A DNA stretch of 63,325 nt, filler included, from Hausera hauseri (taxonomy: Eukaryota): NCBI GenBank assembly GCA_046269625.1. It is 12 parts of 12 records of this genome, joined end to end, with 100 filler letters (N's around TTAATTAATTAA, not from the genome) between each part and the next. Parts side by side here need not be neighbours in the genome. Positions count along the whole stretch, not along the records: positions 48,076 to 53,398 come from JBJURY010279618.1; 11 more parts are not named here. One strand, written 5' to 3'. Position 1 is the first letter of the stretch; every line of letters starts with the position of its first letter. Of this stretch, positions 9,483-62,600 are shown piece by piece. A model generated the notes under the pieces. The model was not told where the DNA came from and searched no databases. It saw only the letters and a program-made list of their open reading frames with translations. The translations under genes were made by a program, and so were the position numbers.

Positions 9483-10036
9483 NNNNNNNNNNNNNNNNNN
9501 NNNNNNNNNNNNNNNNNNNNNNNNNNTTAATTAATTAANNNNNNNNNNNNNNNNNNNNNNNNNNNNNNNNNNNNNNNNNNNNCCCCACCACGGCTGTTCA
9601 ATGTTGCAATTCGATTCATGGTAATAACAAAATTAATTCTGCATTCATCTGAAACTTTTGTGTGTAAACCGTGCTTTCAATGGACAATTTTAATGACGTA
9701 GAATCGGGTCGAATGACAGTTGTTCAGTTTTGTCATTCGCCAGTCGATATTTCATTGCACGACAATCAAAACAATAATTCAGCAAATGAAAACAGTGACT
9801 GTGATATGCTTTTGAATAGGAGTTGGGAGTTAAATTTGGAACAAAGTGGTGAAAAAATGCCATTAAATATGACGTTGCAAAAATTGAAATTTCAAAATTC
9901 CGATTATTTCTCCAGTAATGCTGATGATTTAATTTGAATTTCCTGTGAATCAATGCGATTATTGATAGTGACAATATTCGGCAATGTGCTGATAAAAGTT
10001 TCATTAGTAAAAACGAAATGACAGTGGTAGCACTAC

Positions 10037-11460
10037 AATACCTCCCAGTAGGTGAGTTGAGAACTTGAAAGAAAAGATTGAAAGAAAGTTCTGAGGACAA
10101 ACAAAATTTGCCTAATAAGTTTTTGTGCGTACGAGACGTTGTACTCCTTGGTTGCTTAATTCTCTGCTATAGTTACTAAAAGTAACGGATTTGAGGCGTA
10201 CCTTCACTGTAGTGTCTGGCCGCTGGTAGGGTTTATCAAAAAGAATTTTAGTTTCCGTGCGATTGGATGTTGTTGCTGGGGAAAGTAATACTAAAGATGG
10301 AGGAGAAACGACTGTAGGTATATTATGCCCGTTTTCTGCGATAGATTTAGCATGGGACGAATTGAGAGGTGGTGTAGAAAAAGGCGAAAGTATGACAGTT
10401 GGGTGCGGATCAGAACTAGTGACGAAAGTAGGGGTAGATGGGAATGTCGAGATGGAGGCAGAGATGAAATTAGGAGGTGACAGTGTAGGCACATGGACGG
10501 TGGCAACGGATCGATGTTTGGTGGACTGGGGAATCGAAGTCTAGGTAGAGGTGATTATAGGTGTGAGGAATGAGGTTGATGCTTCCGTTGGTGAGGTATC
10601 GTCGACGTAAAAAGCAAGTTTTACGTTAGTGATATGCACTACAACTTCTTTTCCGTCTTTGAAGATAACAACATTATGTGAATGTAGTTGTATTGATTTA
10701 TATGGTCCTAAGTACTGTGGCTGGAAACCGTGAGGTGTCTGGTTTTTTAGCCATACAAATTTTGCTGAGTATAAGTCTTCGGGTATGTAAGATTTGTCAT
10801 TGTGTATGATCCTGCAAAACGAATTTTTGCTGATTGTAACAAAATGATCCTGTGCTGCTCGTATCCTCTCCTCTGTAGGAGTCTCCTCTAAAGCGGTTAA
10901 TTCGAACAATGATCGTACAAGAGTTCCGAATAATGCTTTAGTTGGTGAAGATCTTGTGGAAGTGGACGGAGTGTTCCACCAGCCAAGCAGGACGAACGGT
11001 AAAAGTGTAGTCCAATTGGTATTTGACTTCGCAAGAATTCGAAGTGATGTTTTCAAAGTTCGGTGGAAACGTTCGAGCAGGCCATTTAATTGGGTATGAT
11101 AGGGTGTAGTATGAATATGGTTTATACCTAATCGGTTGACTAGAGATCTAAACAGATTTTATTCGAATTGGGAGCCTTGATCCGAGATGATGTAATGAGG
11201 GGATCCGAATCTACTAATCCACGTATGGATAAAAGTATAGGCTATTGTGTGAGTGTTTGTTCTCCGCAGTGGAATGGCTTCTGGTCATCGTGAGGCACGG
11301 TCCATCATGGTCAGAATAAATTGGTGGCCGTTGTCTATTGGAAGAGGACCGACAATATCAATATGTACAGTTTCAAAACGTGATACGCATGGAAAGTGGT
11401 ATAATGGAGGTTTTAGATGTTTTATTGTTTTATATTTCTGACAAGGCACGCACTCTTTAA
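10037..11460 (-). mobile_element. Ty3/Gypsy integrase and 3' region, decayed
   Basis: VKECVPCQKYK...FETVHIDIVGPLP...PEAIPL...NGLLERFHRTLK...YLGPYK. A putative PPT (ctgggaggtat) is followed by TGTAG at 10037. Confidence 0.85.
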
Positions 11461-13527
11461 CTCGGTTTCCGGAATGCCGCGCAGACTTTTCAGCGACACA
11501 CCGATTTAATACTTTCAGATTTCACCTTTGCGCATCTATGTATTAACGATATCTTGGTTGCCTTCTCATCAGTTAAACAACACGAAGAACATTTACGATC
11601 CATCTTCAAACGCCTTAACCAGTTTAATCTACTGATCAATTTTGCGAAATGCAATTTCTTTCAAATACGCGTTAATTTTCTAGGACATATTATCTCATCA
11701 GACGGCCATTCGCCTCAGCCTGATTGAGTTGAGACTCTTAAAAATGTCAAACTACCTAAGACAACCACAAAATTGCGCAGTTTCCTTGGTACCTTGCATT
11801 TTGTCCACAAATATATTCCGTATTGTTCAGAACTCACGGAATCTTTTGCACATTTAAGCGGAGGAAAAAAACATTAGAAAATCATGTGGACACTACAACT
11901 GGTTAACGATTTTGACAGGTTACGTGAAGGACTAAAGACTGTGTAAATACTTGCATTTCCTAAACCTGACGCTGAGATAATTTAACTATAGATGCATCAA
12001 ACATCGCAGTAGATGCTTTACTACACCAGTTATACAAAGCAGCAAATCAACCCCTAGAATTTTTTTCCCGAAAAATAACGCCATCATAACCATATATTCA
12101 ACTTTCGATCGGGAATTGTTAGCAATAGTCCTCGCTTTAAGATATTTTTCTTATTTACTTATAGCCCGCCGTTTTGTTATACAGATAGATCATAAGCCGT
12201 TGAGTAATATAATGGCTATGAAACACCTTTCAACTCGATAAGAACGGCAAATTTTATATTTGACCACATTCAACTTAGACATCAAACATATCGAGGGTGT
12301 TGACAATTTAGTTGCCGATTTCCTATCCAGATTAGTCGGTTCAATTAATTTTTCGCCAATCTTCACTCAGACAAAGCTTCAAGAAAATCAACCATCGCAA
12401 GATATTCTCAATTCGTTCAAGTCCCACCAGATAATCGACGGCGTGGCCTTAGATACCTGCAAACCCGGACAATCCAGGATAATTCTTACTCCATCCTTAC
12501 ACAAACAAACATTTCAAAATGTACAATCGTTACATAATCCTAGTGCCAAAGCAACTTTTCGCTTATTTCACCGGCAAGTAATATGGCCTATTATGCCTTC
12601 TGTTGTGCAAGCGTGGGTTAAGGAGTGCGTGGCTTGCCAAAAATTTAAAATTACCAAACATTTGAAGCCACCACTTTACCATTTCCCTTGCACATCACGT
12701 TTCGAGTCTGTTCATGTAGATCTTGTTGACCGCCTTCCTCTTGACAACGGTCATCAGTTCATTTTGACCATGATGGATCGTTCATCACTATGGCCTGAAG
12801 CCGTCCCACTACAGAACACCAATACGGACACGATAGCCGACGTTTTTATACGCACGTGGATCAGCAGATTTGGATACTCTAGATTCATTATTACAGACCA
12901 ACGCACTCAATTTGAGTCCAATCTATTTAAATCTCTCGTTATCCGATTAGGAATCAGTCACATCCACTCGTCACCGTATCACCCTCAATCGAACGGTCTT
13001 CTGGAAAGATTTCACAGAACACTAAAAATGTCACTGAGGATCCTCGCAGAGTACAATAGCAGTGGACTACTCTCCTTCCTCTTGTTCTTGTGGGTTGGCG
13101 TATTACACATTCTACCTCTACATTTTATTCACCTACCAAAGTCCTTTTTGGAACACCTGTACGTTCACTGTTTAAATTAATAGCCTTAGAAGATACACCG
13201 ACAGACGAAGCTATCCGATTAGCACAAGACCATTTTGTTTCAGTCAGCCAAGATTCCTTCTGTAGGATCTTGAATAACAATAGAATATACTTACCGGAGG
13301 ATCTATATCCTGGAAAATTCGTCTGGTTGAGAAACCAAGTGCCGTGCGGTTTTCAACCACGGTATTCTGGGCCTTACAAACTCGTGCAATTGCATTCCCA
13401 CAATGCCGTTATTCTTAAAGACGGCAAAGAACTAGCAATGCACATCAACAACATAAAGTCCGCCTCTTTCGTTGATGATGCACCTCAAACTGAACCTTCC
13501 ACACCTTCTCTGACGCCACCGCAGTAG
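11461..13527 (+). mobile_element. Ty3/Gypsy pol (RT-RNase H-integrase), decayed, same family as the inverted copy
   Basis: GFRNAAQTFQR, IND(D)ILVA, DAS, YSTFDRELLA, DHKPL, DNLVADFLSR, HHCC region, integrase core and YSGPY. Confidence 0.92.
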
Positions 13528-13696: not shown

Positions 13697-14978
13697 GGTT
13701 CAAGGAGATGTACGACACTGTCAAGCGTTTGCCTCGGTACCTCGTTCCTGTTTATTTTGATGCTGTTCTGTCCTGCACGTATCGAGTCATCAAGGAAGAC
13801 AGCTGGTATCTATTGGGAGATCTTATCGTCTTTGGATCGAGTTTCGTCACAGCACTCGGTCTCAGTTCGATTATGCTCCGCTCGGTCGTGCGAAATTACT
13901 GATTGCCCCCATTGGCAACCAATTACGAATGAGAACGAGCCACGTTGCCTGCCGGATTTCCACAGTTCGCCGAGGGCATCTGGAGAAATTTGGGTCGCGA
14001 TACGGTTACTGCTCTGCGTGGTTTACTATTCTTTACTAATAGATTTGAGGACGCTCATCAGATTATTTTTACTTATGGAGCAACCGTTCGATACGGACTC
14101 CTTCCGAACTTGCTTGGTGCTGAATTTACATGAAGATATAACGCGCGTGACGCTACTTGGTTCTGGCTGTATTTGATCAAGGATTATGAATTATCACAAA
14201 AGGAAATAAATAGCGATAGAGTCAGCATACTAAAAATGCCAGTTGTAAGAATGTCTTATAATGAAAACTCGCATGGAAAACACATTGCTAAACAAACGGT
14301 AATCGACGTCATTCAGGAAATTCTGCCGAGGCTTATGATGCAATTGCCTTTTTGAAACGCAATACTGAAAAAAGTACCGATGAACATAAGAAATTGGAAG
14401 GTTTCACAGTAACAGCTGAAATACGCAATGCAACGAAGTTTGCATATGGTGAAAATGTCCACGATAGCGGAACATGGATAGATAGGATGGGTAGCAGTTA
14501 TAAAGCAGGAAACAAAGGAGTCCCATCTACTCCAAAAGATGGCAGTAACGTAGAAATTCTTGGATGGTGCGGCGCTGTTTTGGAATGGCTTGTTGGCATT
14601 CAAGCGACTGGAATTTATCCTCATACACGAATGCAATATCGTGGTCAGTTACTTACTTCGACTGACTGGTACATTAATATCAAAGAGTTTTTCGATGATA
14701 TGTTTTTTATTCCACTTAATGCAACGGATTCTCATTTCGCACATAATCGAGGTATATATCCAGACACCGTAAATTCCTGTACAGGATTTTCCGACAATCA
14801 ATTAAGAACTAATATTTTAATCGCGACGGCTGTTGCACCATCGCTCTTCAAAATTCAAAACACATGGCATATTTTGCGTTTTAGCAGAGAAAGAGCTTCT
14901 TGGTCCTATTGGAATTCGTACGCTTTGTCCTCGTTATTGGGCTTACAGAGGCTATTACGACAACAGCAATGATTCAAC
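13697..14978 (+). pseudogene. AGL: Glycogen debranching enzyme, amylo-alpha-1,6-glucosidase (GH133) domain fragment
   Basis: LPRYLVPVYFD, AG.P.F..G.WR..GRDT..ALRGLL, R.GLLPNLL, RYNARDATWFWL, TWIDRMGSS.KAGNKGVPSTPKDGS.VEI.G, DNQLR.N, LLGPIGIRTL.P. Internal stops and frameshifts; no introns. Confidence 0.9.
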
Positions 14979-15499
14979 TATTGGTAAAAGTACGTTCGCA
15001 AACACTGATGAAACAATGTCATCAAAAAGTAGTGATGATTCGAGAAAAAATTTCTCACATCTGAATTCCCTGCAAAACAAAAACGATGAACTAAATTTGT
15101 TGATTGCAAACCAGAATTCTGACATTCTGACAGCATACCAAGCGTACATGTACAGCGTCATGCTCTACAGTGACCACATCTTCTACATACAGAAGTACAC
15201 TCTGCTCAACAGGTCAACCGACTCGATATCAGACCTCATCTGCAGTTTATTGAAATCACAAACCGTTCTATTGACAAAAGAATACACTATAAATGCCAGA
15301 TTCAGTTGTGCTGCAACTCATCAGCTTTCAAATACATCAGCACCACTTATCGACTTGACGGAAGTCGATTTGCACAACATTTGCAGACACAGTAAGACTA
15401 TTATTGTATCGTTTCTTAAACCACAAAATAATTTCATCCTAATCCGTGATTTAATGCGATCGGAAGATTCGGATACCCACAACATCTTTTATCATAAAA

Positions 15500-18430
15500 A
15501 TCGTCGAGCGGCTGCCGGACCCGGTCACGGAGGTTCGGCAACCTAGAGGTTGCCACGCCGGCGAGGTGGTGCTGCGCGTCGGGCTATCGCGCCAGAGCCG
15601 TTCGAGCGCCGGGCGTTTTTGCGTTGCGCGCCACAATGTCCACCCGTCGCCCAGACCCTCTATCTTTCCTTCCATTTTTTACTCAATAACAAAAACATAC
15701 ATACACACATGCAAGAACACACCACACACAACACGCATCTATCACCACCTTGCTAACCTTCTAGGCACTTCTAACTTTTTCTTATCTCACAGTGGTCTCA
15801 TTATTCACAACTTTCATGATTTTCTCCTTTTCAGACAGACCTCCTTTCTTATCCAAATCAATTTCAAAATTTTTGGCGGCATGAACTCGCCACCTTCGAT
15901 CGACACCACTGAAAAGCCAAAATCTATTCCAATATTACGTTGCGCCGGTACAGTCACACCTCCCGGCCTCCCTTTCGGCCATCACTGTACTGAATTCTTT
16001 ATCGACAGTCAGAACTCAAGTCAAATCTACCTTCATTTTCATTGCCTTAGGCTCTAATCTGCAAACATCACCAAATCTCTTCCAAAGGCCCATAGTCTTT
16101 TCTACTATTTACCAAATTCAATCAAAACGCAAATACCCAATCTTCTACAACTCTTCGAACATCCTCATCCTTACAAGGCGCTATACAACGCTGTTCTTAG
16201 GCTTGCAGAGCCTTCTTTGGATTCTATTATTCAACGCTACTTCAATGAGAACACCCTAGGCAATCAAATGCCATCATAATTTTTACAAATAGCTGTAAAT
16301 AATTTGAAAGCATTTGGAGTAACACAGGAACACAATGCAGATCTTTTAAGACGTTATTTTCTCCACGCCTTACCCTTACAAATTAGGGGTCCGTTAACCG
16401 TGGTAAAAGAATCTTTAGACCTCAATAAATTAACTGATTTAGCTGATAAATCATATGAATTATTACAAATGCACATTACCACACTTATCTCTACAACCAT
16501 CACACTAAACGATACACTGCAAAACGCATTACAACAACAAATAACTCAATTAAAGGCAGACAACAAGACGCTTTTAGAAACCATTAACAGTATAAATAAT
16601 AAGTTAAACCAACTGACTCTCTGAAGACAAAATTTCCCTGGTGCTGCCCATTCTGATAGACCTCCACTGCGCAACAGACGATCACCATCACCCATACGAT
16701 AGTTTATTTGTTACTATCACCACAATTTTGAAAACAACGCACACAAATGTTGCATTGGGTGCAAATTCTTTGCACCTAAATTTAAGTCGGGCAACAGCAT
16801 CTGCATCTACCATTCTAAATTCAACACTAAAGCTATAAAATGTTTACCAGGATGCAATTTCAACTTACATGAGAATCGGCAATCTTCAACTAACAAACAA
16901 AATTAAACACAGCAAAAAAACTAATAACGCCGCCAGCGTCATTGGCTACCTCTAGCAAAGGCTCAACTTTACAAAATTACAGCCGAAACACAACATATGA
17001 AGTCTTTACGTTGGAGGCAACTGTTGTTAAACCAATAAAACATAACATCAACTTCCTCATAGACACTGGAGCAGCTGTCTCTCTGCTTCCTCCTGAATAT
17101 GAGGTACATAACAAAACAAACTTACACAAAAAATATTCACTGCATCAGGAGCAGCACTAAATACCTTCGGCACTACCAGCATCACTTTTACATTACAAGG
17201 CAGCAAAATCACATACAATTGGGCATTCACAGTTGCCATTGTTCAAACTCCTATTTTGGGATCAAACTTCCTATCGCATTACCAACTACTGGTGGATTGC
17301 AGACGATGTTGCTTGATTAACTCAAACCAATTTGAACAATCTAATCAGGTGGATATCATTTCGACGACCGAACGGACGATCATTGGTCGTAAACATGCCC
17401 TTAAAAAATCACATATTAATTTAAAGTATTATTAGTCATCCATTATTTAGAGATTACTATAATGCAGTTGACAAATATGATAATTCCAACTCTCTGACAT
17501 CTTTCGCTAACGAAACTGCTCGTAACACCATTTTTAATTCCACAATATTGCACCAAATTCCACTGACGCTAAGCAAATTGCAATATCAGCATCACCGTCA
17601 ACCATGTTATCATCACTTCCACTGGAGTTGCAATCCTATGTATTTTCTTCTTGCACTCGTTTGTTGCAAAAAGACAATACTTTCAAACCATCCACACACA
17701 CTTTTCATGATATTGTCACAGAACACGAGAGACCCATACGACAAAAAGTACAACCATTATGTCCACGTCGGAGGCACGCAGTCGAAGCCGAATTTTCAGA
17801 ACTGCAACGCTTAGACATCATCAGAAGATCTAAATCTTTATGGGCTTCGCCATTACATGTTGTCCCTAAAAAGGACGGATCTTTTCGCCAATGCGGTGAC
17901 TACAGGCAACTGAATCAGATCACAACCATGGACGCCTACCCTTTGCCGCTAATCAATGACATTCTACATAGAATTCACGGCTCTACAATTTTCTCAAACA
18001 TCGATCTCCATAAGGCATACCACCAAATTCCTGTAGCACCAGCAAACATTCCAAAAACGGCAGTAACAACTCCTTTCGGACTTTTTGAATATTTATATAT
18101 GCCACTTGGTTTACGCAGTGCAGCCCAAACCTTTCAGAGGCATATAGACACCGTTTTAGCAGACCCAGACTTTGCATATCCTTACATTGACGATATGTTA
18201 ATTGCCTCTTCATCTTCTAAACAACATACTGAGCACCTACGCATCGTTTTCAAACGACTCCACCAAAACAATCTCGAAATATACTTCGCAAAATGTTCCT
18301 TCTTTAAACAAAGAATCAATTTCTTTAAACACATTATTACTCCAACCGGACATGCTCCACAGCAAGACCGCATCACTCAACTGAAAAACATTCAGTTACC
18401 ACGCACAACTTCAGAAATGCGTTCCTTCCT
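15500..18430 (+). mobile_element. Ty3/Gypsy element: 5' region, gag, aspartic protease and RT (decayed)
   Basis: Gag LGNQMPS..L...LLRRYFL..LP...L..LADK and CYYHHNF...AHKC...C; protease FLIDTGAAVSLLP; RT WASPLHVVPKKDGS, CGDYRQLN, PFGLFEY..MP.GLR.AAQTFQR, YIDD. Confidence 0.92.
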
Positions 18431-18530
18431 NNNNNNNNNNNNNNNNNNNNNNNNNNNNNNNNNNNNNNNNNNNNTTAATTAATTAANNNNNNNNNNNNNN
18501 NNNNNNNNNNNNNNNNNNNNNNNNNNNNNN

Positions 18531-20740: not shown

Positions 20741-21900
20741 TTAACCATGACGCTGAAAGGTAGAATGTGAGCAAGAGATAATAAGAAGTTGGAACAAAAA
20801 GTGATTATAGGATATAGGATTTAGTTTTTGTAAAAGTATGTTGTGGTCTATTCTTTCAAATGGCTTACTCAAGTCTGTCAACAGAACACCGTATTTTACT
20901 AAATGTTCATGTTTGAGTGCCATATCTCGGTTAGTTTAGTTTATCGGAGATTAACAAGAGTGGGTACGTCTAAAGCCTGACTGATTTTCATGGACGAGAT
21001 TGAATTTATTGATAGAAGAGGTCTGCATATGATTACAAATATTGCGCTCGAGAGGCTTGGATATTGCAGAACAACAGAACTCCTACCATTTTATGATATA
21101 GCATTGAAATGATCTTTTTTATATTTCCTCAGAACATATTGTGAAGGGTTTCGATACTTTTTACAGTTCTCTTGTCTTTGATTCGCAGTCATCGAGCATC
21201 AGCTGTTGTTGACTTTTTGTAGTTAACATGGTCTCCAATTTTCTTAGTCTCCTTGTCGCCTCAGAGTTAAGTATTCTAGGTTCTCCAAGGTGGCACAGAT
21301 CTGGATTTCACACATTTTGCACGCAAAGGAGCATGGTAGCCCAAGACCGTAGTGACAGTTTTTAAAAATGTTTCCAGTGCCTCACTGGCAGTGGATGTTC
21401 CATACACATTTTGAAAGGGAGCTGCTAATAGATCTGCCAGAAATAGAGATTCACTAACATTTTTGAACGAGCGATTGTGGATAATTTGGTAGTGTAATTT
21501 GGGAATTCGAACTCCGTTCTTAGCCCAAGTACAGAATATTGGGTAGTGGTCTCTAAGACCACAGGTAGGGACACAGACCTCAGTTATTCGACTAGGGCTG
21601 CTGACATAGATGTGATCAATGCATGTTGACGACCTGTCTGCGACTCGGGTCGGTAGTGTTATAATCTGTTGTAGATTAAACACTGAGTATAGAGTTTCCC
21701 AGTTTGCATTCCGTTTCAATGCATCTATATTAAAATCTCCTAACATTATTACTTCAAGAGAGTCAGTTGAAACAAAATCCATCATGTCTGTAAAATGATC
21801 ATACCATCTTACTCTGGCCTCGGGATTTCGATACAGGAAGCATATCAAAAGAGGATTGAGATGCATCAGGTAAGACAATCATGGACCCCACTGGGGTATG
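20741..21900 (-). mobile_element. CR1/L2-type LINE ORF2 fragment (APE endonuclease + start of RT)
   Basis: MLGDFNID, PTRV...SSTCIDHIY, DHYPIF, R.FKN..E..FL.DL, HAPL....V.....PW, and GVLLTDLSKPFE.IDH.ILL.KL. Confidence 0.88.
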
Positions 21901-23621: not shown

Positions 23622-26600
23622 AACACCGATACTGAACCCGACCTTCATTTTCATCCTTGAAGCAGCCGATTTTGTTGGTAATCGCGCTGCTGTACAACGG
23701 ATGATCCGGTGGTTGTTGGGCATATCCAGTAATCCATCTGATTACATTTGCTGCAGTAACTGTTCGCGATTGACTTTTCTCAGCCGCAGGAAAAAACTGT
23801 CTGTCACTGGCAATTATATTAATGTCACAGCCGTCAAACATTTGCCGGTAACGTGCCAAGTCGTGATGCTGTAGCTCATACATCCGCAACTTACTCAGGT
23901 CCAATACCACTTGCCCGATGTAACTTGGTCGGTCCAGAACGACTTAATCTCTGTTTAAAAGCACCACAACCAATCCACCGGCAATGTGCATTGACCGCCG
24001 AAACTGTGCCTTGCTGGTATACGTAACTAGCCGCTTTTTCTGTTGCATAGGCGTAAATTGAGCCGCTTTTCAGATTCTCCACTGTTTTTCCGTACAGGGT
24101 ATTGTTTTGCAGCTTGTAATAGTCCTTTTCGAACTTTGTAAAAGGTGCGGCTGGTTTTTCCGAATTTCCATCCATGTACGCCTTGAATATGGGAGCCTGA
24201 GCAAATCGGATTGCACGATGCAATTGTGTGATGCGTACACGGAGCTGCATGCAGAACTGTAGCATACGCGAATGGACCACGTAATTCAGCTTCGGTTCAT
24301 GCGTCATGAGCAGTTTCTTCACTTTTGAGCCTGGCAAATATTGGTTAAATGGTACGACCGGTAAATCATCCAAAACGTTATGCAGCTCATCCGGTACCAC
24401 GCGATCGACCTCCATCACGTATCCGAGTGAGTCTGCCATGTCTGCTCGTGGTATGTTGACCATTATGTCGTCCAGATCTTGTCTGTCGACAACCCATTCG
24501 AATGATCCGTACGGCAAAGGTTGCAAAAGCGCCCTGTCATACAGGTTATTAATATCCATATACAGCAGTGATGTGGTATCGGTAGCACGGACCTGATGCT
24601 TGTTCACAAATTTCATGCCGCCGTAATACCAACATCAAACAACTGGTACATTTTCAGGTCTTGCAGCAGCTCAATGTATCGATCAAGTGACATTAGAGCT
24701 GACGCCAAACTCATCCCCGGTATGGAATAAAAGTTGAGTGGCCCCAACCTATCTTCAGCCAACACTTTCGCTCGAAACGCTTGAAGCACATTGGCTAATA
24801 AGTACACGTCAAGTTTAAGATACTGGAACATGTAATCCAACATATTTCTACAGCCGAGTTCTTTCCAACACCTCTGCCCGTTCCGGTATTCATTGGCTGC
24901 GATACCAGTCCATCACGGCTATATTCCTCTGCTGTCCGGAGTCGCTAATATGATGTAGCAAAGTCATGTGGAAATGTCTTTGCTGCGTGCAATATGTGCA
25001 GGGAACTGCGTCAGTGTTATCGGCACATCTGTCAAGGCATTTACCAGCTTTGCCAATGATTCATTGAGAAATTGCAATGAATCGAGGAAGCGTACCTGGA
25101 ACCGGTTTATGCATGCTGACAGGGACAGGTACTTCTCCATTGTTGGGATTATGGATAGTTCTCAGTGTGGAAATCCTTTGATGGCCCATTTCAGTATATG
25201 GTGACAATCATAACCTCGGAAATTATGACAGATCACCGGTAGGAATGGCCGCACACGCCCTGTTAAATTGCATGCGTTGCATGCTGCTCCCAGGTATCGA
25301 CCGGTTAAATGATCATGGTCCGGTACGAGCCGTTCCTGTGCATCAAAAGGCAATATTTTGTGGCAGAGCTAACATTCATCGGCGGCAGCGAAAAGCAGCG
25401 GTTCATATTTGTCTGTCCATATCAAGGGCTTAGTGTTATTGTTACTGTACCATGGTGCGATTTCCCTTTCCACTGTCGCTTCCAACAGTTGCAAGAAATC
25501 GCGTATGCATTTCCAGCCATGAAAAACGTAATATTGTGGTTGTCCAGGGGATTTTATTGGAACAACGAACATACCGATGGCGATTGGAATGTGCTTTTGG
25601 TCGTATGCGTTGTGCCCCGGTAGGATTGCCTTGATATCGGCATATACCACATGCCGGACTGTCTGTTTTCGATCAGTCACTGAATCTCAGCTCCTTTTTG
25701 ACTGGCATGACATACATTGTTGTCCCTGATGAATTTTCTCTGCACAGCGCCACATGTTTTTCCCATGTCGTTTTTGACCTGAAACCATGCAGACATGTAG
25801 GGCACCATTTACAGTTTATACGCTTTTTGATGAATTGGTTGTGTTTTATGTTTAGCAGTCCATTCGGGTTCCGACTGCGATAAATTATATCCACATGTGG
25901 GTTTTTGTATATCTCTTTGTCTGATGGTATTTCTACGATTGCGTTGTACCGGAAAACGTTGATTGCCAGAGTAGAATTACGCCGTTCAAATGTCGGGATG
26001 GATTTCAGTTTCATTGGCATCCAGCTTTCATCGAATTCCAATTCGGAAAAATACTGCCGATACTGCTTTGGACGATTTGCATGATTTCTAACCACTTCGT
26101 CGTATTTAAATATAGCCAGAATACTGTAAATAAAACAGTATTCGTCGTCGGTATTTTGTACATTCACTACCGACAGAGACTGCTTCAGAGCTGCAGATGT
26201 CGGTATGAATGATCGCCCAGACAAATAAATTATATCACTTGACTTTGTTATGATAAAGCCGAGAGTGTCAATTTTTATAAATCGCTAGCCACTACCCTTT
26301 TCGGTGTAGTTGGCGATTTTTTCATCCAACTTTTCGCCTACATCGTCGATAAAATCTTCCGAATGTGGTACAGCTCGATGTGATAGGTACCATTGTTTCC
26401 TGTCACCTTAAACATTTTCAAATTCTGCAAGTGCGTAATATTGCACTTTGCAGTGTTTTTGTTGGAATTTCTCTAGTTCCAATTCTACCCGGTTGCACAC
26501 TGGACGGAACATGCCTCAGCTGTAGTGTTGTTGTCCCCGACATGTTTACTTTCATGTCCATGTACGATTTGTTTAGATCGTACTTGACAGTAATGGAAGG

Positions 26601-37534: not shown

Positions 37535-39716
37535 AAAATTGTTTCTCGGTAAACCAATCAATTTTGAAAACCAAGTGCGCAAGTTCGTACAAAAAGTGAA
37601 AGGTTTTTATTTGATTCATCGTTATACATAATGATGTCCGATAACAATCGTCTAGATGGCGAATTCAATCCATCGATAAAGATGGAAAAGGTACTCGAGT
37701 TGATGATGTCGGAGAGAAACTCCAACATCTGTTTGCTTAAGCGTCGGCTACGTGATTTACAACGTATTGTCGACATGAAACAGGTTGATTGTCACTTGTG
37801 TGTGTGTGCGGATAGTTTTAGTTTTGACTTAGGCTCGAGGGTTGTCGGTGAATGAGGAGGAACGTGATTGTCTGAAAGAATTCGGACACCTTCTGATAGA
37901 GGACGATCCGTTCTCCGTTACCGTTGAGAATAGGTTTCAAAGGTAGTCTCGTGTACTGTATGACAGGATAACGGTTGGTTGTTGCAGCATAATGGATAAG
38001 GTGACGAAAGATCCTGATGTTTCCCGAAAGAACGAATTAGTCCAAGAATATTCCCAATACCTTCGGGAACATCCACCGGATTTCCAATCATTGCATTTGT
38101 CGGATGTTATCAACCGGTGCCAAAACGAACCCGATGAGTGTCAAACTATTGGTCCCATGACTCGTAAACGACGTCTTCTTCAGAACGGTATAGAGTCGGC
38201 ATTGTTGGGAAAATATGCTAAGTTGTCCATTGAGAAAGCGAGTGAATCAAGTGACAGTCGATCAGAATCGTCCGAAGATGGTGGCGGATCCAATGAACAG
38301 GACAATAGTGATGAGTCAGTATCCAGTGACACTGACTCACTGTCGAGTTCTAAACGACGGATGAAGGTCAATCGACATGATCGGCGGGAATTCCTTTGTC
38401 CACAAGAGGACTTTCTAGATTTCTTTTGTCTACTGCAGTACTTATTCATCAGTACACACCAACATCGATTGACGACAACTCAAGTCGAGGAACGAATTCG
38501 TCATTGGCAAATTATCAACAGACGAAATGTCGGTGATTTATTCAATCGATGGGCATCACTAACAGATGATTGGGTCATTTTGACAGTGTCAGCACTGAAT
38601 TATCTCAATACCAACAGTCCCGTTGTTGTCGACCATCGGAAGAAATCTCAGATCTGGCATTGGAAACGAGATCGGGAAATTTACGATCTCCATCGGATGT
38701 TTCTCGATTGGTGGAATTCTCCAGTCGACAAGAACCAATCGGCAAACTGTCAGACAAACAATCAGAATGAGAAAATCCCCATGCCTCTTTATCCCACAGA
38801 CTGGCAGGTACGGATGTCCACAGCGGATGAACGGATGCGATTTCAAATTCAAGAACGGAAGAGATATTTGCGACCGTGGCGTGGATTCGTGTACAACGTA
38901 CATGGGTACAGTTGTGTAGTGGCACCAGTAAGGGGTTGTCAACCGGGTAGAGATTACAGCAATGTGAAGGCACGAGGACATCCATTATTGGTCAACGAAC
39001 GACCGCCGCATGTTAACATTGTGGAAATTGTCCGTGATGCAGTTGCCCGATTACCCAACGGTCAAGGATCAAGATCGGATATTGTTCTGTTGGCTATGGA
39101 CAGTGCATATTGGAATAGTCAGGGAAATGAGAAAACGATCGGCCAGTGTATTAGTTCGGCATTGGATCGACTACAGGGTGAAAGTAGCGATCCATCGGTC
39201 AGATACAATTCCAAATTGAAATTGTGGTTCTATCGTCATCGACATCGGACATTACAGGAACTGGAAGAAATCCATTTGAAGAATTTGCAAGAGGAAATCA
39301 AGAAATATCGCAGTAATAACAACAGCAACCCGAACAACGGCAATACATCATCATTACTCAACGGAATGATGCGGCCAACAACAAGTCAATCAACTCAGAA
39401 CACAACCAGCGGACCGTATTACAATCCTGTTGTCATATCAGACAATCGACAGCCGTACGTATCGACGGATATAATTCCCCAACAGTCACCATTATTCGTC
39501 AACAGTGCTCATACTCAACGTCAGTCCTATCAGCAGTTCTCTCAGGCAATCACAAATGCCCGTGAACTGATTCAGCCAGTGCCTGTTGCTCGACCACAGA
39601 CTTTTCATCCTGGTCATCCATTACAACATGCCAACAATCCTGTTTTACTTTACAATCGAACTGTCCGTGTTAATTTGCCTTCGGATTACTTTAGTGATTC
39701 GCATTACTATATTTGA
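37535..39716 (+). CDS. NFRKB: Nuclear factor related to kappa-B-binding protein (INO80 subunit G). Exons 37535-37602, 37656-37783, 37833-37942, 37988-39716; 5' exons not located
   Basis: DEUBAD-like LFLGKPINFEN...KDGEFNP; FQIQERKRY..P...F.Y..HGY..VV.PV.G; KARGH.LL...RPPHV.I...VRDAVARLPNG.GSR; SALDRL..E..DP.V.Y....KLW.Y.HR.R. Three frame-preserving GT-AG introns of 53, 49 and 45 nt. Confidence 0.92.
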
Positions 39717-42466: not shown

Positions 42467-45400
42467 TTGGTGATATGTTTATACCTACGTAAAAGAAATA
42501 AGTTAGTGTATATCAATTTATTATATAATTATATTTAATGTTTTCAATTTAAAGTTAACATTTACTTTAATTTGTTTAAGTTTAGAATTGTTCACAATAT
42601 CCCATTTACTGCGTCTGTCGCATACACGAGGAGGCAAAACAGTGCCATCAACAGATGGAGAAATATTACAACGTCCGACGTGTAATATTTCAGCCAATGT
42701 CCATACCCCGATTTTTATGAGATGCACAAACATAATCTCGGACCGTTTACACGGTCGAAGAAGATGATGTTAGTGCATTGCCCCATGTACCCACGGTACT
42801 GTACAAGTACATTGCACGACGTTGGTGTTTGCCAGAATGCAATGGAGCAGTACTATGGCGCCACAACGGTGCACGGTAAACGGGTCTATATTTGTCCCGG
42901 TTGTTCAATAGTTGACGATGAAATCAACTATGAACAATTTTACAATGAAACCAGTTTCAGCGGTGGTGCTCGAAAAAGCAAATATTAATGGAATCAACTA
43001 AAATCAGCAGCATCCCTTCAACAACAACAACCAGTAGGAAACGTAAGGCATCAACAAGTCTGGACAAATACATCAGAACTTATATTGAGCTGCACGAAGA
43101 AGAGCAACAGCAGGATCAGCAGGAGCAGAAACAGCAGCAGCAAGAAGAACAGATACAACAGGAACCCGATATTACAGTCAAGTACGATCTGAACAGATCG
43201 TACGTGGATATAAAAGCGAACATGTCGTCGACAACAGCAACACAATTGATATATGGTTCCGCAAAATGTGCGCAACCGGTTGGAATCATAAGTGGAGAAA
43301 ATCAAACAACATCACCAACACTGCAAAGTGCAATATTATACACTTGCAGAATTTGAGAACGTTGAAGGTGACAAGAAATAATTGTACCTGTCACATTTAG
43401 CTGTACCACATGCCAATGATTTTATTGCCGACGTCGTCGAAAAGCTCGAGGAGAAAATCGCCGACTACACGGAAAAGAGTAATGGTTGGCGAATTATATG
43501 AATTGTCACTCTCGGCTTTATCATAACGAAGTCGAGTGACGTAATATATTTGTCTGGACGATTATTCATACCGACACTTGCAGCTCTGAAGCAGTCTCTG
43601 GTGGTAATGAATGTAAAAATACTAACGATGAATACTGTTTTCTTTACAGTATTCTGGCGATATTGAAATATGACGAAGTGGACAGACATAATGCATCTCG
43701 TCCAAAACAGTATCAGAAATATTTTTCCGAATTGGATTTTGATGAAAGCTGGATGTCGATGAAACTGAAATCCATTCCGGTTTTTGAACAGCTTAATCCG
43801 ACACTGGCAATCAACATGTTCCGGTACAACACAATCGTAGAAATACAGGTGGATGAAGAAATTTCCAAAAATCCTCATGTGGATATAATCCATCGTAGTC
43901 GGAACCCAAATGACCGCTCATTAAATTTGTTACTACAAAAAGAAAAGTACCATTACGTTTCAGTGACAAATCTGGACAGATTACTGAACATGGAGCATGG
44001 CCATTTCCTCCAAAAACTGATAGTGTAAATGGTATCCTGTATGTCTTCATGGATTCAGGTCGGAAACAAGATGGGAGAAACATGTGGCGCTGTTCAGACA
44101 AAATTCGTCTGGAACCACAATGTATGTCATGCCCGTCAAACAGGAACTCAGATTCACTAATTGGTCAAAATGCCGATATCGAAGCTATCTTACCACGGCA
44201 CAACATATATGACCAAAAACATGTTCCAATCGCCGTCGGTATGTTGGTTGTTCCAATAAAAACCGCGGGTCAACCTCAATTTTATGTTTTCCATGGATGG
44301 AATTGTGTACGCGATTTCTTGCAGCAGTTGCAAACCATAGTGAAACTGAAAAAGCACCCTGGTACAGTAGAAACAGCAATAAACACTTGATGAAGATGAA
44401 GATGCACGCCCGACGTTTACAGTCACAGATGAGTGTTACCTGTGCTACAAAATATTACCGTTTGACTCACTGGAACGTCTCGTACCGTATAACGATCACT
44501 GTACTGGTCGATATCTCGGAGCGGCATGTAATTAATGCAATTTGGCAAGGCGTGTGCGGCCATTCCTACCGGTGATCTTTCATAATTTCCGAGGTTATGA
44601 TTGTCACCATATACAGAAATGGACCATCAACGGATTTCCGCACTGGGAACTGTCCATAATCCCAACAATAAAGGAGAAGTACCTGTCCCTGTCAGCACGC
44701 ATAAACCGGTTCCAGGTAAGCTTCATTGATTCATTGCAATTTCTCAATGAATCACTGACAAAGCTGGTAAATGCCTTATCTGATGTGCCAATAACCTCAA
44801 CGCAGTTCCCCACACATATTGCACACAGCAAAGGCATATTTCCATATGTGTTTGCAACATTATATGAGCCATTCCGGACAGAAGAAGAATTACCGCCGCG
44901 ATGGACAGGCATCACAGAAGATGAATATCGGAAAGCACAAGAATCTTGGACAGAACTCGGCTGTAGAAATATTGGAGTACATGCTCCAGTATCTCAACTG
45001 CACGTGTACTTATTGGCCGATGTGTTCCACGAATTTCGGGGGAAAGCGTTGGCTGAAGATAGGCTGGAGCCACTCAACTTTTATTTCATATTGGGAATGA
45101 GTTGGGCGTCAGCTCTATTGTCAATGGATAGAGATATTGAGCTGCTGCAAGACCCGGAAATGTACCTGCTGTTTGATCTTGGTATTCGCAGTGGCATGAC
45201 TTTTGTCAACAAGTATCAGGTCAGCGTCGCCGCCGCCGATACTACATCACGGCTGTATATTGATATTAATAACCTGTACGATTAAGCGCTTTTGCAACCC
45301 TTACCGTACGGTTCTTTCGAATGGGTAGTCGACATAGAAGATCTGGACGACATAATAGTCAGCATATAACGAGAAGATATGGCAGGCTCAGTCGAATACC

Positions 45401-48075: not shown

Positions 48076-51000
48076 TCGACAAAGAATATTATCTTGTTTC
48101 GCTGCAATAAGTATCTAATAGGAATACTTTTTGGTTGCCTTCCGGGTCTTTTACTCGTCGTGACAAATTTAGTAGTCGTACTAGACGTTGTCGTCGTTCT
48201 TATTGGAATCTTCCAATTTTTTCTTCGTAAACGATATCCTCTTAGGTATATGCTTGGGTGATTTGGTCTGACCTTATATAGGTCGAACTGTATCTTATAA
48301 CTGTGCCCTTTGGGTATTTTACAGCACGGTTTTGGGATCCATCGGCTGATAGTGCAGTATCTCGCTGGCTGATTTGGTTCTTTAGACGGTATAAATTGAA
48401 CCGAGATCTGGTAGGATTCGGTTAAACTTGTTCTAGTTTTAATCTGAATACATGCGTTTTCCAAATCCTTGGAGACTTCAATTATATTTTCATCTAATAA
48501 TTTAATTTGAGGGTCAGTACTTTGAACTATGTTGGATAATTTTACGTTATTCGATAGTACTTGTTTCGGCATAGCTATTTCGACCAGCGGTCGTATATCT
48601 GCTCTAATGACCTCATAGGGGTAATAATACATAAGTAGTACATATCTGTATGTTCGTCCGAAATCCAGTTCTCAACAATTTCTATAAATTCCATATGAAA
48701 ACTCGCAATCCTTTATCCTTTCACTGTTCTGATCAGTAAATTTTATACGAATTTTCGTATATTCTTTAATAGCTTTGTCAGTTTTGAACCAAATACAGGG
48801 CTTTTTCCAATCTGTGTCATAGGCTTTCATTGTTTTTAAATTTCCCACATCTTTTCGTTCTTCCAAGCGTTGCTGTTCCTCTTTGATTTTAGCTTCCCTT
48901 CCACTTTTGCTAATTCCATATACATCTGTTAAACTGGATTCACGATCGTCCCACCATTGTGCTTTAGTCTTAGGAACATAAGAGGCGATTAATGATAACG
49001 CTAAAATTATCTGTACGTAAGATATTGGTCTATTGATTATAGAGTATATCTTTGTTTTCCTTTTGTCTTGATTTGGGTTGGATCGCAAATTGTAACGTTT
49101 TCCTGGCCTTATTTCCGTTTTAACAACTCTGTATAGATACTATTTCTTTACCGTTTTTATTAATGTAAACAGTGATTTGTGTGGTTCGAATAACTTCGTA
49201 AGTCCCTCGTCCGGTACGAGTAAGTTTTAATGACGTACCTTTCTTTGCAACTGGATAATGCATGTAGACCCAGTTTTCTTTTCTAAATCGTGGGGTTTTG
49301 CCTTCTTATCATATTGTTTCTTAAAATGCTCTTGATACTCAAGGGTAAGCGTCTTACTATATCCCAACAATTTTATAATCTCATTTGTAAGACTTCTGAG
49401 AAGTTCGGTTCTAAATATTCCGGATTCGCGTGATACGGAGTCATTTCTAAGTCCGTAGGTAATATCGCTTCGCGCCCATACATCATAAAAATGGTGTAAA
49501 CCCTGTGGCGGGATGTGGAGTCGTGTTAATAGCAAATTGCGTTCCTTCTAAAAATTCATTTCAGTCTTTTTATCCTTCGCGACTACGGTCGGTAAGACTC
49601 GTAGGACTGTTTCATTCATAAGTTCGACCATTCCGTTACACTGCGGGTGATATGCGGTGGTGGTGAGTCGTTTGATTTCGAAAATTTTTGAAATTTTATA
49701 GAATAATTCGCTTGTATAATTTCTTCCTCTATCGGTTAGTATCTTATCGGGGGTCCATATCTGCAAATAACTTTCCTTACTACTGCGTCTACTAAAGTTT
49801 TTGCCTTCTGGTCAATTAGTGCAATTAATTCAACTAAATGTGTTAAGCGGTCCACGCATGTAAAAATGTATTTGTTTTTTTTGTGAGTCGTAGGTAAAGG
49901 TCCTATTATATCTATAGACATAGCTTACATAGGTATGTCTGGTACGTCGATCGGTTTTAATTCTGCTATATAGTTTTTCACTTTCTTCTGCTTCGTTGCA
50001 GAGACTTCACAAGCGTCCATCCAGTTTTTTACATCGATATAAACGCTTGGCCAATAGTACTTATTCATTATCCTTTCTAATGTTTTCTTCCATGACATAT
50101 GTCCAGTTAACTGTGAATCATGTTCGGCCATTAACACTTCCGTCCGTAATCCTTTTGGATTAACTACCAGTTTCCGTCCCTTTCGTTCGTAATGTACAAT
50201 ATTATCCGGATTTGATGCATAATATTTATCTTTGTGTCTCTAAGTCTTTCCTTAGCTGACGTCCTTTTGGTATTTCATCTTGCTCGGCAAATTTGAATAT
50301 TTGTTGGATAACTTTGTCTTTAGCTTGTTCTGAAGAAATTTTAATTGTTTTATTTAGTGTTAAAGCACTTTGTCGTTCGATTAATTCTTCGAGTTGGGCT
50401 TTCTTCATGGTCGTAATTGTACTCGTTTTTGTTTTAAGTCTCGATAAAGCGTCTGCGTCGATATGTTTGCTTTCGGGTTTGTACTGGAATTCAATATTGT
50501 ATCGGGAGATTTCCTCGATCCACCGATTTAATCTACATGTCGGTTTATTGGCCCGCCTTTTAGCGTCGTAACAGCCTTGCGATCGGTAACTATAATAATT
50601 TTCTGCCCATAAACGTAGACATTGAAATGTCTTAAGGCTTCTTTTACGGCTAGTGTTTCTATTTCAGTTACTGAATAATTTTTCTCGGCTTTTTTAAGCG
50701 ATCGTCCTTCGTATGCAATTGGATGTTCCAATTTTTCATCTTCTCGTTTCTGAGGAAATTCGTAACCTATTCCCTCTACTCGCGTCTGTTTTAATTATAA
50801 ATGGTAAATTGAAATCGGGGTATCACAACACTGATTTACGTGTTAGAATTTTCTTTATTTCATCGAACGCTTTCTGTTCAACCTCGGTCCATTTCCATTT
50901 GATTCCTTTTTTCAATAGCCGATATAATGGCTCATTTATCTTCGAGTTGTCTGGTACATAAGTGACATAATATCCACATAAGCTTAGCCAATGCCTTAAT

Positions 51001-53398
51001 TCTTTATGATTTTGGGATTCCATACAATCCGATATTTTATTTAGTAAGATTTATCTGGCTTTGACCCTCCTTCTCCGACTATATGTCCAAGATAGGATAC
51101 AGCATTTTGTGCCCATTTGCATTTCTTTGGGTTCAGTTCTAATCCTGCCTGTTCCAACCGCATAAGAGTGTCTTCGATGTCCTTTAGGTGTTCCTCTTCT
51201 GTTCTTGATGCTATCATTAATCGTCTAAGTATGCGAACGCGTGATCGAGTCCCATTAACATTTTATTCATCATTCTGGTGAAGATAGCTGAGCCGGTTGT
51301 TATACGGAACGGCATGACGTTAAATTCGTAAACTCCGTCGTGTGTCTTAAATGCCGTTTTATAAGTCATCTTCAATTTCTACTTGCCAATATCCTGATTG
51401 CACATCCAACGTGGGAAACCACTTTGCTCCTGATAATCGGTCTAAAGCTTCTTTTACTGGCGGTAGTGGAAATGAGTCTTTCATCATAAGTGTGTTCGGG
51501 GCTCTGTAATCTATACAGAATAGATGTTTTGTGGTACCCTTTTTCTTGACCATGAGTATTGGCGAGTACCAAGACCAGTAGCTTGGTCGTATTATGTCAG
51601 CCTTCAGCATACGTTTTACTTCTTTTGTTATTTCAGGCCTTAATGAATGCGGTGGTGGGTACCATTTAGGCATCTTTTGGTCCTCCAAATCGATTTCGTC
51701 ATTGGAACCAGGTTTCTTTTTTAACGGAATAGTTAATCTTAAGGTTTTTGCTCTACCTATATCTTCCTCGTTTTGGGCGATAATCGACTTATATTTGCAT
51801 AATAATTCGTAAAATTGATAATATGCTTCTGGTGAAAATTTTGTCTCAAAATGAAGTGGAAACTCGGCATATTTATAAGGTTTTTCTTCTATTGTTATTG
51901 CCGATACTTTGTAAGTATAACCCAATGTAGTGTTGGCATACAGCTTTACGGGAGTTGGCGCGTTATTAACCAATCTGACTGGTACTCTTCCTGTCGTTAT
52001 TCTTGTCAAAATGTTACTGAGTATGACATTTGGGTTAACGTCTTCTTGTGGCTCGAAGTATACTGGTTGATCATCCTCCTCGCGTATTTGAGCATAAATT
52101 AGCATTTCGGTTCTGGGCGGAATATTCTCGTCGCCGGGAATCCATACTTCGCCTAGTTTCCTCTTTCATTGTCTTAATACCTTTCACTTGTCCAAGTTCT
52201 AGTAGTTTCCCCGTATGTAAATTTATTGCGATATTGGGTAATTGTTTCAGTATGTCGCAACCTAACACTACATCATCGCTTAGTTGGTCCACTGCGGCAA
52301 ACTCGTGTCGAAGGATTTGGCCCATTAATTGGACTAAGGGACTCCATTTAAATTTCTGTTTGGATTCTTGCCCGAAGGCTTCTATACTGCCTGGGTCTGA
52401 CGACGAGGCTGGGTGCAATTGTTTTTGTAGCATTGGTGGTATTGATTCCAGTTTAATAGACGATTTCTCTGATCCGGTGTCGATTAAGGTGTAGACTTCC
52501 CAATCCTCGATGGTAACTTTTGTGAAGGGTCTCCATTCCATAACTGTTCCATAACAACTTGACACGTCCTTTGGTCGTTTAACTGAAGAAATTTTATGTC
52601 CGTTTATCCTTATTTCTGGTGATGAAATGATATTTTCAGCCAGATGTTTCGGCTCTTCATTCGGATATAAATCGTTGATTGCGATGCTATCTACATAGTT
52701 TCTAATTAGTGATTCTTGTACTATTGGTTTTGGGAGCGATTTCATTCCTTGTGTTCCCCAGACTGTTGATCTTGTCTCTATATTACTAGCTATTCTCGGT
52801 GAGTACAATATCCTATGATCATCTTCCGCTCGTCGTTGATTAGTGATCTGCATTTTCTTTAATACTCCGTATTGTTTTGTTCCTTCGTAAGGGTCCTCAT
52901 AGCTAAAAGGTTTCCGACGGTATTCCGATTTGTATGACACCATAGATGTTCTATCGCAATCTTCATATATTGGAGCTATTGGTGGAATGATGGGCAAGGG
53001 TGCCTTAATTACTGAATACATCTTGTGTCTGTTTTGTCTGAGGTTCGCTTCTCCTCCGTAAGGCTCGTCATCATCGGAATTATCTCTTCGTGTTATTGGT
53101 TTCTTAGTTTTGCGTTTGGATAGAAATGTGGGTCTTGCTCGTCGTTTATAATTATGATAGCCGACATGTCGTTCAACGTCATTTTTCCATCGATTTTCCT
53201 CGTACGCTTTGAGCATTTTGCCGAACGGGGTGATAATTGCGATTAAGTTCTTGCAGGAAAATCCTGTTAGCATAAATATTTCATACCCATTTATGATCGA
53301 TTGGATTACCGTCTTTACCAGTTGTACCAAGAAATAGATCGCTAAAAATCCAGATACGGCTTTTCCAAAAATTAAAAATCTTCCCCATATTTTGTAGA
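48076..53398 (-). mobile_element. Ty3/Gypsy element: glycoprotein-like TM segment - PR - RT - RNase H - IN - extra signal-peptide ORF
   Basis: LIDTGS (PR); WYSPILMVKKK, FCIDYR.PN, LDVQSGYWQ (RT); IAYEGRSL..AEKNYS.TE.E.LA (RNase H); H...GH, IDIIGPLP, TDRG.NY, TTAYHPQCNG.VE (IN). Confidence 0.92.
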
Positions 53399-59665: not shown

Positions 59666-62600
59666 TTACAATGCCGCAAGTCCGTGAGGTAGTGTATGAA
59701 TTGCATCACCCAGGATCTGCCTCTTAACATACATCCAATCTAGGCTCTTCTTCTGTAATGTTACTGTCTCAATGTTATGATCCCTAGACGGGATCCTTCA
59801 CATCTCTGATATGATATGAGTCTGCTCATGCAAAACTCTCACATAATCTGCAAAAATGATCTTTTTGATAAGGTAGCCCTTTGAACGCCCTTAGCTCTCT
59901 TCTTGATCTGACCACATACATCAATTGCATACATTTTGGACCTAAGAGCTACAAATCTCGAGATGATTGCCCCATTCAACTCGTCTTTGAATTTCCCAAG
60001 GACTTTCTTGTTGGTAATTGAATAGTTGGGATGCTCTTTCGGATAGTCAGACGTATCCATATGCTGTGCAAACTTAGCAAAGTCCTCATAATTGTCCTCA
60101 TTATGGATCTGACAGATGAAACTATTAGTATCCATATACATCAGCTGTATGGACTTGAATGTGGGGATCATAATGTCATAGTGTAATTTGTACATCAAGG
60201 TCTTTGACAGGTCCAGTATTGCCATACCCACATATATGGGCTTGTTGAATTGCAAGGATGTTTTCAGCATATAGATGCTGACCAAATTCTCAGCATATAT
60301 GATGCTGCTGTGGAAATTGGGCTTGACAATGAGCTTCTTTGCCCGCTTCCACTCAGAGACCAGTTCGATGTTGATCCTGTTGCGGATGTTCGCCATGGTC
60401 TTGCCAAAAAACGCTGTTGTTGTAAGGCTTGTATTGCTCATTCTCAAAATCGTTCTTGGAATTTGTCCGTAACTTCGTATTGAGGTCTATGTAGGGTTGC
60501 AGCCAGTTGGACTGGCTGAACTGCAGGGCCCGATGGATCTTAGTAATGAGAAGTCCATTCCTGACTGCCTACTGGATATTTATGTAGCGAACTACATTCC
60601 TCTCCATACTATCCAGATAGCAGAGCAAATTTCTATGCTTTCCATGGAGTGGAGGCTTTCTCTCAGGGAGGAAAGCAGCTGTTGATGCCTTGTGCGGATA
60701 AAAGCCGGATATTCCATATCCACCTCCAGTATATAGCCCGTATCTCCAGTGGGATCCAGGTCCAGTATAAGGATGTTTTCAGGATGATCGACCCACTTGA
60801 AGCTATAATATGGGAATGGGGCCCTCATTGCCCATCCATATAGGTTGTTGGCTTTCAGGTATTATATATATGAGGATTCCTTGGATGGATCATACTGAAC
60901 CATATACTTGTTGTTGGTCTCGCTATACCGGTGAATGGCCTCTCTCAATCATGGGGATCATGTCGTAATCCTTTATGATCTTCAGACAAACACCTGCATA
61001 TCGCAGCATTTCTGCCCAGCTCCTCCCTGGAGCCGTAAAGAAATGATCCGGATCCCATGCATGGCTCTTTATCGTAACATCCCTGAAACTCTCAAAGATA
61101 TCCGTCAGAAGTATCACATTCATCTTGATGTATATGTCGCTGTATCCTCCTAATGTTCGGCATTGGAATGCATGCCATACGTTCTGATCATGCTAGTAGT
61201 CCATATCACTGATATCGCAATCAGAGAGGATAATTTAAAAATCCTTCTTGGCTGGCAATGAGATCTCATCAAGTATTTCCCATTATGTTATATAGTCGTA
61301 GAGAAACACGCCTTTCCTCTTGACGAGGTCAAATATAATGGGAAAGAACCGCCTCGTCTCCTTGAGTTTTTCTGCAAGGAGGTTCTTCACTAAACCGTCA
61401 AGTGAAAACAACATGAAACGGAAACTGTCTACGAAGCGAAGCCTGATTCTTCCAACATGCTCTGTAAATGTGATGTATTTTTCCTCACTATTAGGAATCA
61501 CATCAATGTTTCCTTCAATGCTGCCCAGTTCCCGAACAATGAAATGAAAATCATAGCCACTGAGGTTGTGAAACACTACATGCACATGTGTACATGTTTT
61601 GCAACGTAGATTGCAGTTATTGACTTTATCATTATCCTTAGTGACTGATTTGGAGCACAAGTAACTTGCTGTTGCCTTGCACCATTCTTTTTGCCTTTTT
61701 GGCATGTTCACTGTATTCTTATGCTGCTGCAGCAAATCTCCAATCTTATGAGCCATGTCTTCAAGTCCTTTCATAAAATGAACTGCTGCGCTTTGACCCC
61801 TGAATAGAAATTGTTCACTGTCAAGTCCTTTGGCATACATGCAATATGAGGAAAGCTCATGATATTAATATGACGTTGTGTTGCTATGTTTGGGATTAGT
61901 ACTGCAACTCTGAACTTGGTGCATAATAGTCTCAAAGTCACAATAGATAACTATTGGGACCTTGGTCTTCTTCTCGAACTCCTTGAATTCGATGTAATCC
62001 TCTTTGCAGAATCTGGCCTGATACAATAATTGTCTTTGCAGTACATCTTGTGCTCTTTCAGCTTCAATACAGCTACATCGCCGCTGAAATGGAACAAGCA
62101 TCGTTTACATATTTCTATTTGTCCATGATGTTTCGTAATTTGTTATCTGATTAGCCGCTCAGAGTCTGATCGAAACAAAGTTTCTTTTCTGCATCGTCTA
62201 GTAGGAGCAGATCCCTATGATCTTCCAGTTCAGTATCACATATCTGAAGGGTGTAGAATTTGTCATCCTCATTCAATCATAAGATATTGATGGACATGTT
62301 GACTTTTCCAAATTTTTTGACTTCATCTATGGATGGAGTGAACTTGATACATTGGAAGTCATAGTTGTGGTGCACATCCTTATAAAGCCAAACTCGTGAA
62401 TCATGCCTTTGATCTGTTACAAGTATTGATCGAATGGCATACATGAAACACACGTTGTCTCTATTACGGATATTGACACATGCATTTTATTTGCGATCCA
62501 ATCAGGGAGCTGAATATACGAACTGCCCCGCATGAGAGAGTACTTGTGCACATACACAAGCAATCTCTTGATAGTTGCCAGAGTCCAATCGCTCTTCTTA

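Follow-up and report, generated by a model that had tools for sequence, protein, structure and literature searches.

We present a contig that very likely covers the central part of a decayed LTR retrotransposon, a Ty3/gypsy element of the HSV/gB-type GAG-ENV-POL group, in which a single polyprotein would work with two ectodomains, one ahead of the enzymes and one behind the integrase. The window, i.e. the whole stretch of 63,325 nucleotides analyzed here, consists of 12 contigs joined end to end by 100-nt N/TTAATTAATTAA spacers, and the element's contig spans 48076-53398 of it, cut at both ends, with 53398 being a genuine contig edge. The placement of Env before Pol has already been published, and the surface protein after the integrase is apparently undescribed: we found no account of such a membrane protein in the literature, where subscription papers, Repbase notes, figures and most supplements might hold one. 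A second signal-bearing protein after the integrase was also absent from the reading given in the initial annotation of this DNA.

Table 1. Features of the element's contig, in coding order; positions are those of the window
Feature	Position	Strand	Basis
Chuvirus/HSV-gB-type (class III) Env glycoprotein, C-terminus	53091..53396	-	Pfam PF24664, alignment, model, hydropathy
Low-structure basic linker	52536..53090	-	pLDDT, spacing shared with P0048
Retroviral aspartyl protease, in frame with Env	52239..52535	-	Pfam RVP, Foldseek; catalytic motif 52487-52470
Pre-RT spacer and RT with connection, fragmented over three frames	50826..52165	-	Pfam RVT_1, three pieces
RNase H and bridge, broken	50229..50794	-	Pfam RT_RNaseH, E 2.5e-19
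Integrase (zinc finger, core, C-terminal part), several pieces	49123..50239	-	Pfam Integrase_H2C2, E 6e-16; rve, two pieces
Post-integrase frame	48078..49139	-	Layout as in relatives; runs off the contig end before any anchor

Translation of the minus strand yields a single stop-free frame of 441 aa from 53396 to 52074, ended by a stop codon at 52073-52071. The initial annotation had described this frame as open from the contig edge and quoted its translation, both of which are borne out; of the span that it assigned, the start at the edge stands and the end at 52380 does not, as the frame continues to the above stop. A search of 1.84 billion representative proteins recovered 12 matches, all 12 of which carry the PF24664 domain, while a word-index search with residues 1-130 recovered none among 44 candidates and a PDB sequence search with the entire frame none at E 10. 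Residues 2-102 match Pfam PF24664 (Monjiviricetes_fusion) with E 1e-11 (44 bits; cut-off 27), the match covering only the C-terminal ~100 aa (profile positions 539-638 of 653). The fragment comprises, in order, a membrane-proximal helix, a membrane anchor (about 53378-53286) and a weaker hydrophobic stretch (about 53279-53220), with hydropathy maxima of 1.88 for the 19-residue windows from residues 13 and 17 and of 1.51 at residue 40; seven columns are invariant over 10 aligned rows. In an AlphaFold model of the 441-aa frame, a confident helix extends over residues 2-78 (pLDDT 67-93 by blocks) and a confident domain lies beyond residue 290. The chuvirus-type transmembrane signature that the initial annotation had named is hence genuine, given the PF24664 match and the recurrence of the family in every database hit. 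Likewise, what lies upstream of the protease is the C-terminus of a gB-type glycoprotein and not the ordinary Gag or host DNA that the annotation had named as the contrary outcome. The Env ectodomain of this copy is cut off at the contig edge, and its gag is likewise missing from the contig.

The anchor is followed by a linker of 239 aa (residues 57-295), earlier described as a hydrophilic, stop-free stretch of about 240 aa rich in Tyr and Pro; its length, hydrophilicity and openness hold, and its composition is rather basic (Lys 9.2%, Arg 9.2%, Pro 7.9%, Tyr 6.3%). Across most of residues 92-286 the model has pLDDT below 50, the alignment being shallow there, and the linker alone as a query gave no significant similarity and no hidden domain. 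A motif search of the linker for a CCHC knuckle was negative, in keeping with the earlier claim that no Gag zinc knuckle lies between anchor and protease, and the frame does reach LIDTGS unbroken, at residue 304. An [ILV]YP motif occurs in the linker at 52670-52662, and the distances from the anchor to this motif and to the protease are 239 and 300 aa in the window versus 240 and 295 aa in P0048, one of the relatives described below. The same motif is found downstream of the anchor in seven of 12 anchor-bearing relatives, three of them without a protease (one further relative row, in which no anchor was detected, was left out of the count). Because of the P0048-like spacing and the presence of [ILV]YP after the anchor in relatives, we read the linker as a putative extended cytoplasmic tail of Env.

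Residues 288-386 of the same frame match Pfam RVP with E 1.6e-4, exceeding the cut-off, and a Foldseek search with the protease model is led by Ddi1 and the proteases of EIAV and HIV, with a lowest E of 5e-7. This frame closes with the stop at 52071, the RT begins at 52165 in a different one, and Pol as a whole is broken into 12 pieces across three frames, 10 of which match the relatives at E <0.001, including the C-terminal piece of the integrase (E 7e-7). The domain order is PR-RT-RH-IN with gypsy-type Pfam domains, and the initial annotation was thus correct in placing Env ahead of the enzymes: PF24664 and RVP lie in one frame, with RT-RH-IN downstream. The RT region is 27-54% identical to those of P0036, P0037 and P0048. 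These identities are not diagnostic of kinship, because another gypsy RT elsewhere in the window shares 35% identity with P0048, being at least as similar as the element's own Pol. The window copy is decayed and unable to make the polyprotein; searches for LTRs in the contig (longest repeats <=27 nt) and for sister copies within the window recovered none.

Four of the 12 matches of the first search run in frame from the Env anchor into a protease (P0036, P0037, P0038 and P0039), and a further search for homologues, in which the Env-PR region of P0036 served as query, gave two matches among 4221 candidates, the sole addition being P0048; the join is hence seen in five database proteins. P0036 (2627 aa), P0037 (2855 aa) and P0048 (4029 aa) are single ORFs holding an entire Env and Pol, with the whole PF24664 domain detected at E 1e-84 to 1e-97, and a CCHC knuckle precedes Env in P0036 and P0048. 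P0048, which aligns to residues 2-395 of the window frame with 24% identity (E 2e-14), has its CCHC knuckle at 504, a signal-like stretch at 1104 and Env at 1114-1752, followed by Pol. The one-ORF order in the intact relatives is Gag, signal, gB-like ectodomain, anchor, tail, PR-RT-RH-IN, second signal, second ectodomain and anchor. The number of protease domains varies: P0037 and P0048 have three retroviral protease domains each (one behind the Env tail, one ahead of RT and one following the integrase), P0037 additionally carries a pair of C2H2 zinc fingers between the first and second of these, and the window copy and P0036 have one each. P0036 corresponds to NCBI HBK71150.1, which is labeled as a protein of a Flavobacteriaceae MAG and yet has the full make-up of an Env-Pol retrotransposon polyprotein; eukaryotic DNA that was binned with a bacterium is its probable source.

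In all three full-length relatives the frame continues past the integrase-end motif: a signal-like hydrophobic stretch leads into an ectodomain of 216-379 aa in which Cys residues occur, and an anchor closes the polyprotein, with an extra protease in between in P0037 and P0048. The corresponding frame of the window has a basic integrase-end motif at 49097-49083 and a signal-peptide-like stretch at 49016-48975 (hydropathy 2.58 over 11 aa), the two being separated by 28 residues devoid of Met. The hydrophobic stretch is followed by 294 residues with seven Cys and a Thr/Ser-rich patch (48197-48153), interrupted by a single in-frame stop at 48674-48672. Pfam gave no match in either half of this frame. 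We also considered whether it might be the missing N-terminus of Env in a permuted or tandem arrangement, and rejected this, as neither half has PF24664 and the relatives carry both proteins separately. The motif C-x2-L-x5-Y occurs in one, one and two copies in the post-integrase ectodomains of the relatives and is absent from their Pol regions. In the window the strict motif has one match, which spans the stop and is reached by 127 of 5000 shuffles; C-x2-[LI]-x5-Y, in which Ile was admitted after viewing the window sequence, has two matches (11 of 5000 shuffles). A phmmer comparison of the frame with the relatives was not significant (E 0.09-0.74), a local profile built without the window scored the frame below shuffles, and in a matrix test likewise built without the window 198 of 1000 shuffles matched the frame's best score. 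N-glycosylation sequons number zero in the window frame versus four, two and eight in the relatives. The frame shows the layout of the relatives' tails, and its homology to them is not significant, given the negative outcome of the profile and matrix tests, neither of which drew on the window in its construction.

The post-integrase tails are in general little alike, the best pair being P0037 and P0048 (E 3e-5). Within the P0048 cluster of 20 members, all 15 members listed retain both Cys motifs as well as the integrase-end motif and the anchor; variable columns among the listed members amount to 5.3% in the post-integrase ectodomain, 4.3% in Gag, 1.5% in Pol and 0.5% in Env. The variability of the ectodomain fits either host contact or relaxed constraint. 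In Atlas, the tails of P0036 and P0037 fall mostly beside fibronectin-III (FN3) and cytokine-receptor clusters at 0.82-0.86, the top hits being unnamed and scoring 0.86 and 0.88, all below the lead threshold of 0.9, and the C-x2-L-x5-Y motif presumably resembles the tyrosine-corner strand of FN3. Pfam detected no fn3 in the post-integrase ectodomain at E up to 10, and a single-sequence model of that of one relative has pLDDT 33.5. We treat the fibronectin-III likeness as a lead only.

The order of parts in the relatives suggests a way in which such a polyprotein might operate, drawing on signal and stop-transfer topology and on class III fusion, both of which are established knowledge. The polyprotein would pass the ER membrane twice, with both ectodomains luminal and Gag and Pol cytosolic, and signal peptidase would release both luminal domains at their N-terminal ends. 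The enzymes would stay tied to the Env tail in the cytosol until cut by the element's own protease, the tail thereby keeping Pol at the budding membrane, and gB trimers would drive fusion of the particle with the target cell. The weakest step is that the post-integrase type I membrane protein would be a second particle-surface protein, most likely serving attachment; the most speculative is that it might attach particles or trigger gB. Separate expression of the post-integrase tail through splicing is also conceivable. We put forward, as a distinctly tentative and rather doubtful proposal, that these are two-glycoprotein enveloped retroelements, in which a gB-like fusogen of class III, encoded ahead of the enzymes, is paired with a fast-changing, FN3-like, stalked attachment protein after the integrase, which would functionally replace the gD/gH-gL partners of herpesvirus gB. 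Were this true, it would represent an unreported LTR-element architecture and explain in concrete terms how retrotransposons with a gB gain entry to cells. The entry mechanism of such elements is considered unknown, as herpesvirus gB requires gD, gH and gL (PMC13524379), and the second membrane protein, encoded at a constant position within the polyprotein that also holds gB, is a direct candidate for the role of such a partner. Intact natural relatives exist in P0036, P0037 and P0048, and annotation that ends at the integrase may overlook a gene in the gB-type group.

A serious possibility, though one falling short of even chances, is that the element is the same and the post-integrase protein is a captured accessory cargo acting on the host cell, rather than a partner in entry. 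As such it might be a receptor decoy, block superinfection, or function in adhesion or immune modulation, and was possibly captured independently in each lineage. The dissimilarity of the four tails and their spread of lengths agree with this reading, as do the cellular nature of their fibronectin-III and cytokine-receptor neighbors in Atlas (all scoring <0.9) and the many host-like domains borne by the flatworm Burro polyproteins (PMC6431247). However, position, topology and the C-x2-L-x5-Y motif, which their Pol lacks, are common to all three full-length relatives, and synthesis in one ORF with gB would suit co-packaging.

Improbable, in our assessment, is a one-off chimera, be it a chuvirus glycoprotein fragment or foreign env lying before an ordinary gypsy pol, or a join made in assembly. 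In a 73-column tree the window's Env anchor is indeed not part of the 98/97 clade formed by the five relatives with a joined protease and falls between these and stand-alone glycoproteins, which also speaks against close kinship with the five; moreover, the linker by itself has no homologue, the window holds no sister copy, and arthropods commonly carry glycoprotein EVEs next to gypsy fragments (PMC10084718). Against this, an open frame of 441 codons has a chance of 1e-13 given the base composition (9e-8 for 240 codons), the coding strand is A-rich and evenly so along the whole contig, and the spacing in P0048 is near-identical. The same join in five other proteins also removes the concern, raised in the initial annotation, that the junction might be confined to this copy. 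Features separating gypsy from BEL/Pao elements are the YLDD motif, RT_RNaseH and Integrase_H2C2 on one side and Pao-type protease and Gag domains on the other. It is highly improbable that we are dealing with a BEL/Pao element like the mosquito Anakin instead of Ty3/gypsy: the same glycoprotein family is also found in BEL/Pao elements (PMC13524379; PMC7642597), which share the PR-RT-RH-IN order, but the RT motif of the window copy is YLDD, RT_RNaseH and Integrase_H2C2 are present, and neither Peptidase_A17 nor any other domain of the Pao type is detected by Pfam in the pieces from the window or in the relatives.

Among known systems, GAG-ENV-POL elements with gB-type Env have been described from flatworms, nematodes and bryozoans (Chary and Hayashi, PMC13524379). 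The 'ancient errantiviruses' of Schmidtea, Prostheceraeus and Macrostomum from that study have a gB-type Env before a Ty3/gypsy Pol, as in the window, and the Env of P0037 resembles, by eye only, the Smed_errantivirus_1 row of its supplement. In contrast to those elements, the window copy is broken and partial, and it lacks the uninterrupted ORF by which PMC13524379 recognizes intact elements; the text of that study is silent on a shared Env/Pol frame and names no membrane protein after the integrase. In Burro/GYPSM1, giant gypsy elements of planarians, a single polyprotein has env inserted in frame, with gag before it and pol behind it, which was called the first such case (Arkhipova and Yushenova, PMC6431247). 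Env is likewise in frame with the protease in the window, whose host is probably a flatworm, too. The Burro Env was, however, likened to the gypsy Env and to baculo-, retro- and paramyxovirus fusion proteins (PMC6431247), whereas that of the window is of the PF24664 type, and of the BCL2, BIR, ankyrin and MATH cargo reported for Burro, Pfam detects none in the window contig or the relatives. The mosquito BEL/Pao elements of Dezordi et al. 2020 (PMC7642597) share the Chuviridae glycoprotein family, and differ in that their Pol is BEL/Pao and not Ty3/gypsy. A further parallel is offered by nematode endogenous retroviruses. These reportedly have a continuous gag-env-pro-pol ORF, and their extra ORFs are said to code for a small hypothetical protein or an Upf1-like helicase. 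Their flipped ENV/POL order (Sacco et al. 2022, PMID 35550022, as cited in PMC13524379) is like that of the window, unlike their nematode hosts.

The remaining contigs of the window contain animal-type genes and pieces of mobile elements. On one of them, an NFRKB gene at 37947-39716 (+), open over 589 codons, has its best match at 63%, followed by flatworm proteins at 44-48%. In a tree of 24 rows (the window and 23 of 32 matches), thinly sampled and compositionally biased, it clusters with parasitic flatworms, apart from two arthropods and four further rows (100/99). If all contigs come from one organism, as we assume, the host is probably, on this weak indication, a flatworm, and by inference a free-living one. 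A frame at 53902-53633 (-), at the edge of the next contig, presumably resembles a short gypsy Gag; we rejected it as the missing gag, as the contigs are merely concatenated and it has no real Pfam match and nothing that ties it to the element. Pieces of protein-primed DNA polymerase B, which lie on four contigs, and a RING finger, found at 6821-7357, 23891-24634, 44536-45285, 61283-61864 and 8998-9534, might be Polinton-like fragments, and one of those polymerase B contigs has an endonuclease VII match. Further gypsy-type RT/RH/IN pieces are located at 10613-13024 and 17661-18431, an endonuclease of the non-LTR type at 21279-21878, and the C-terminal domain of a glycogen debranching enzyme, over two overlapping frames, at 14292-15546 (+).
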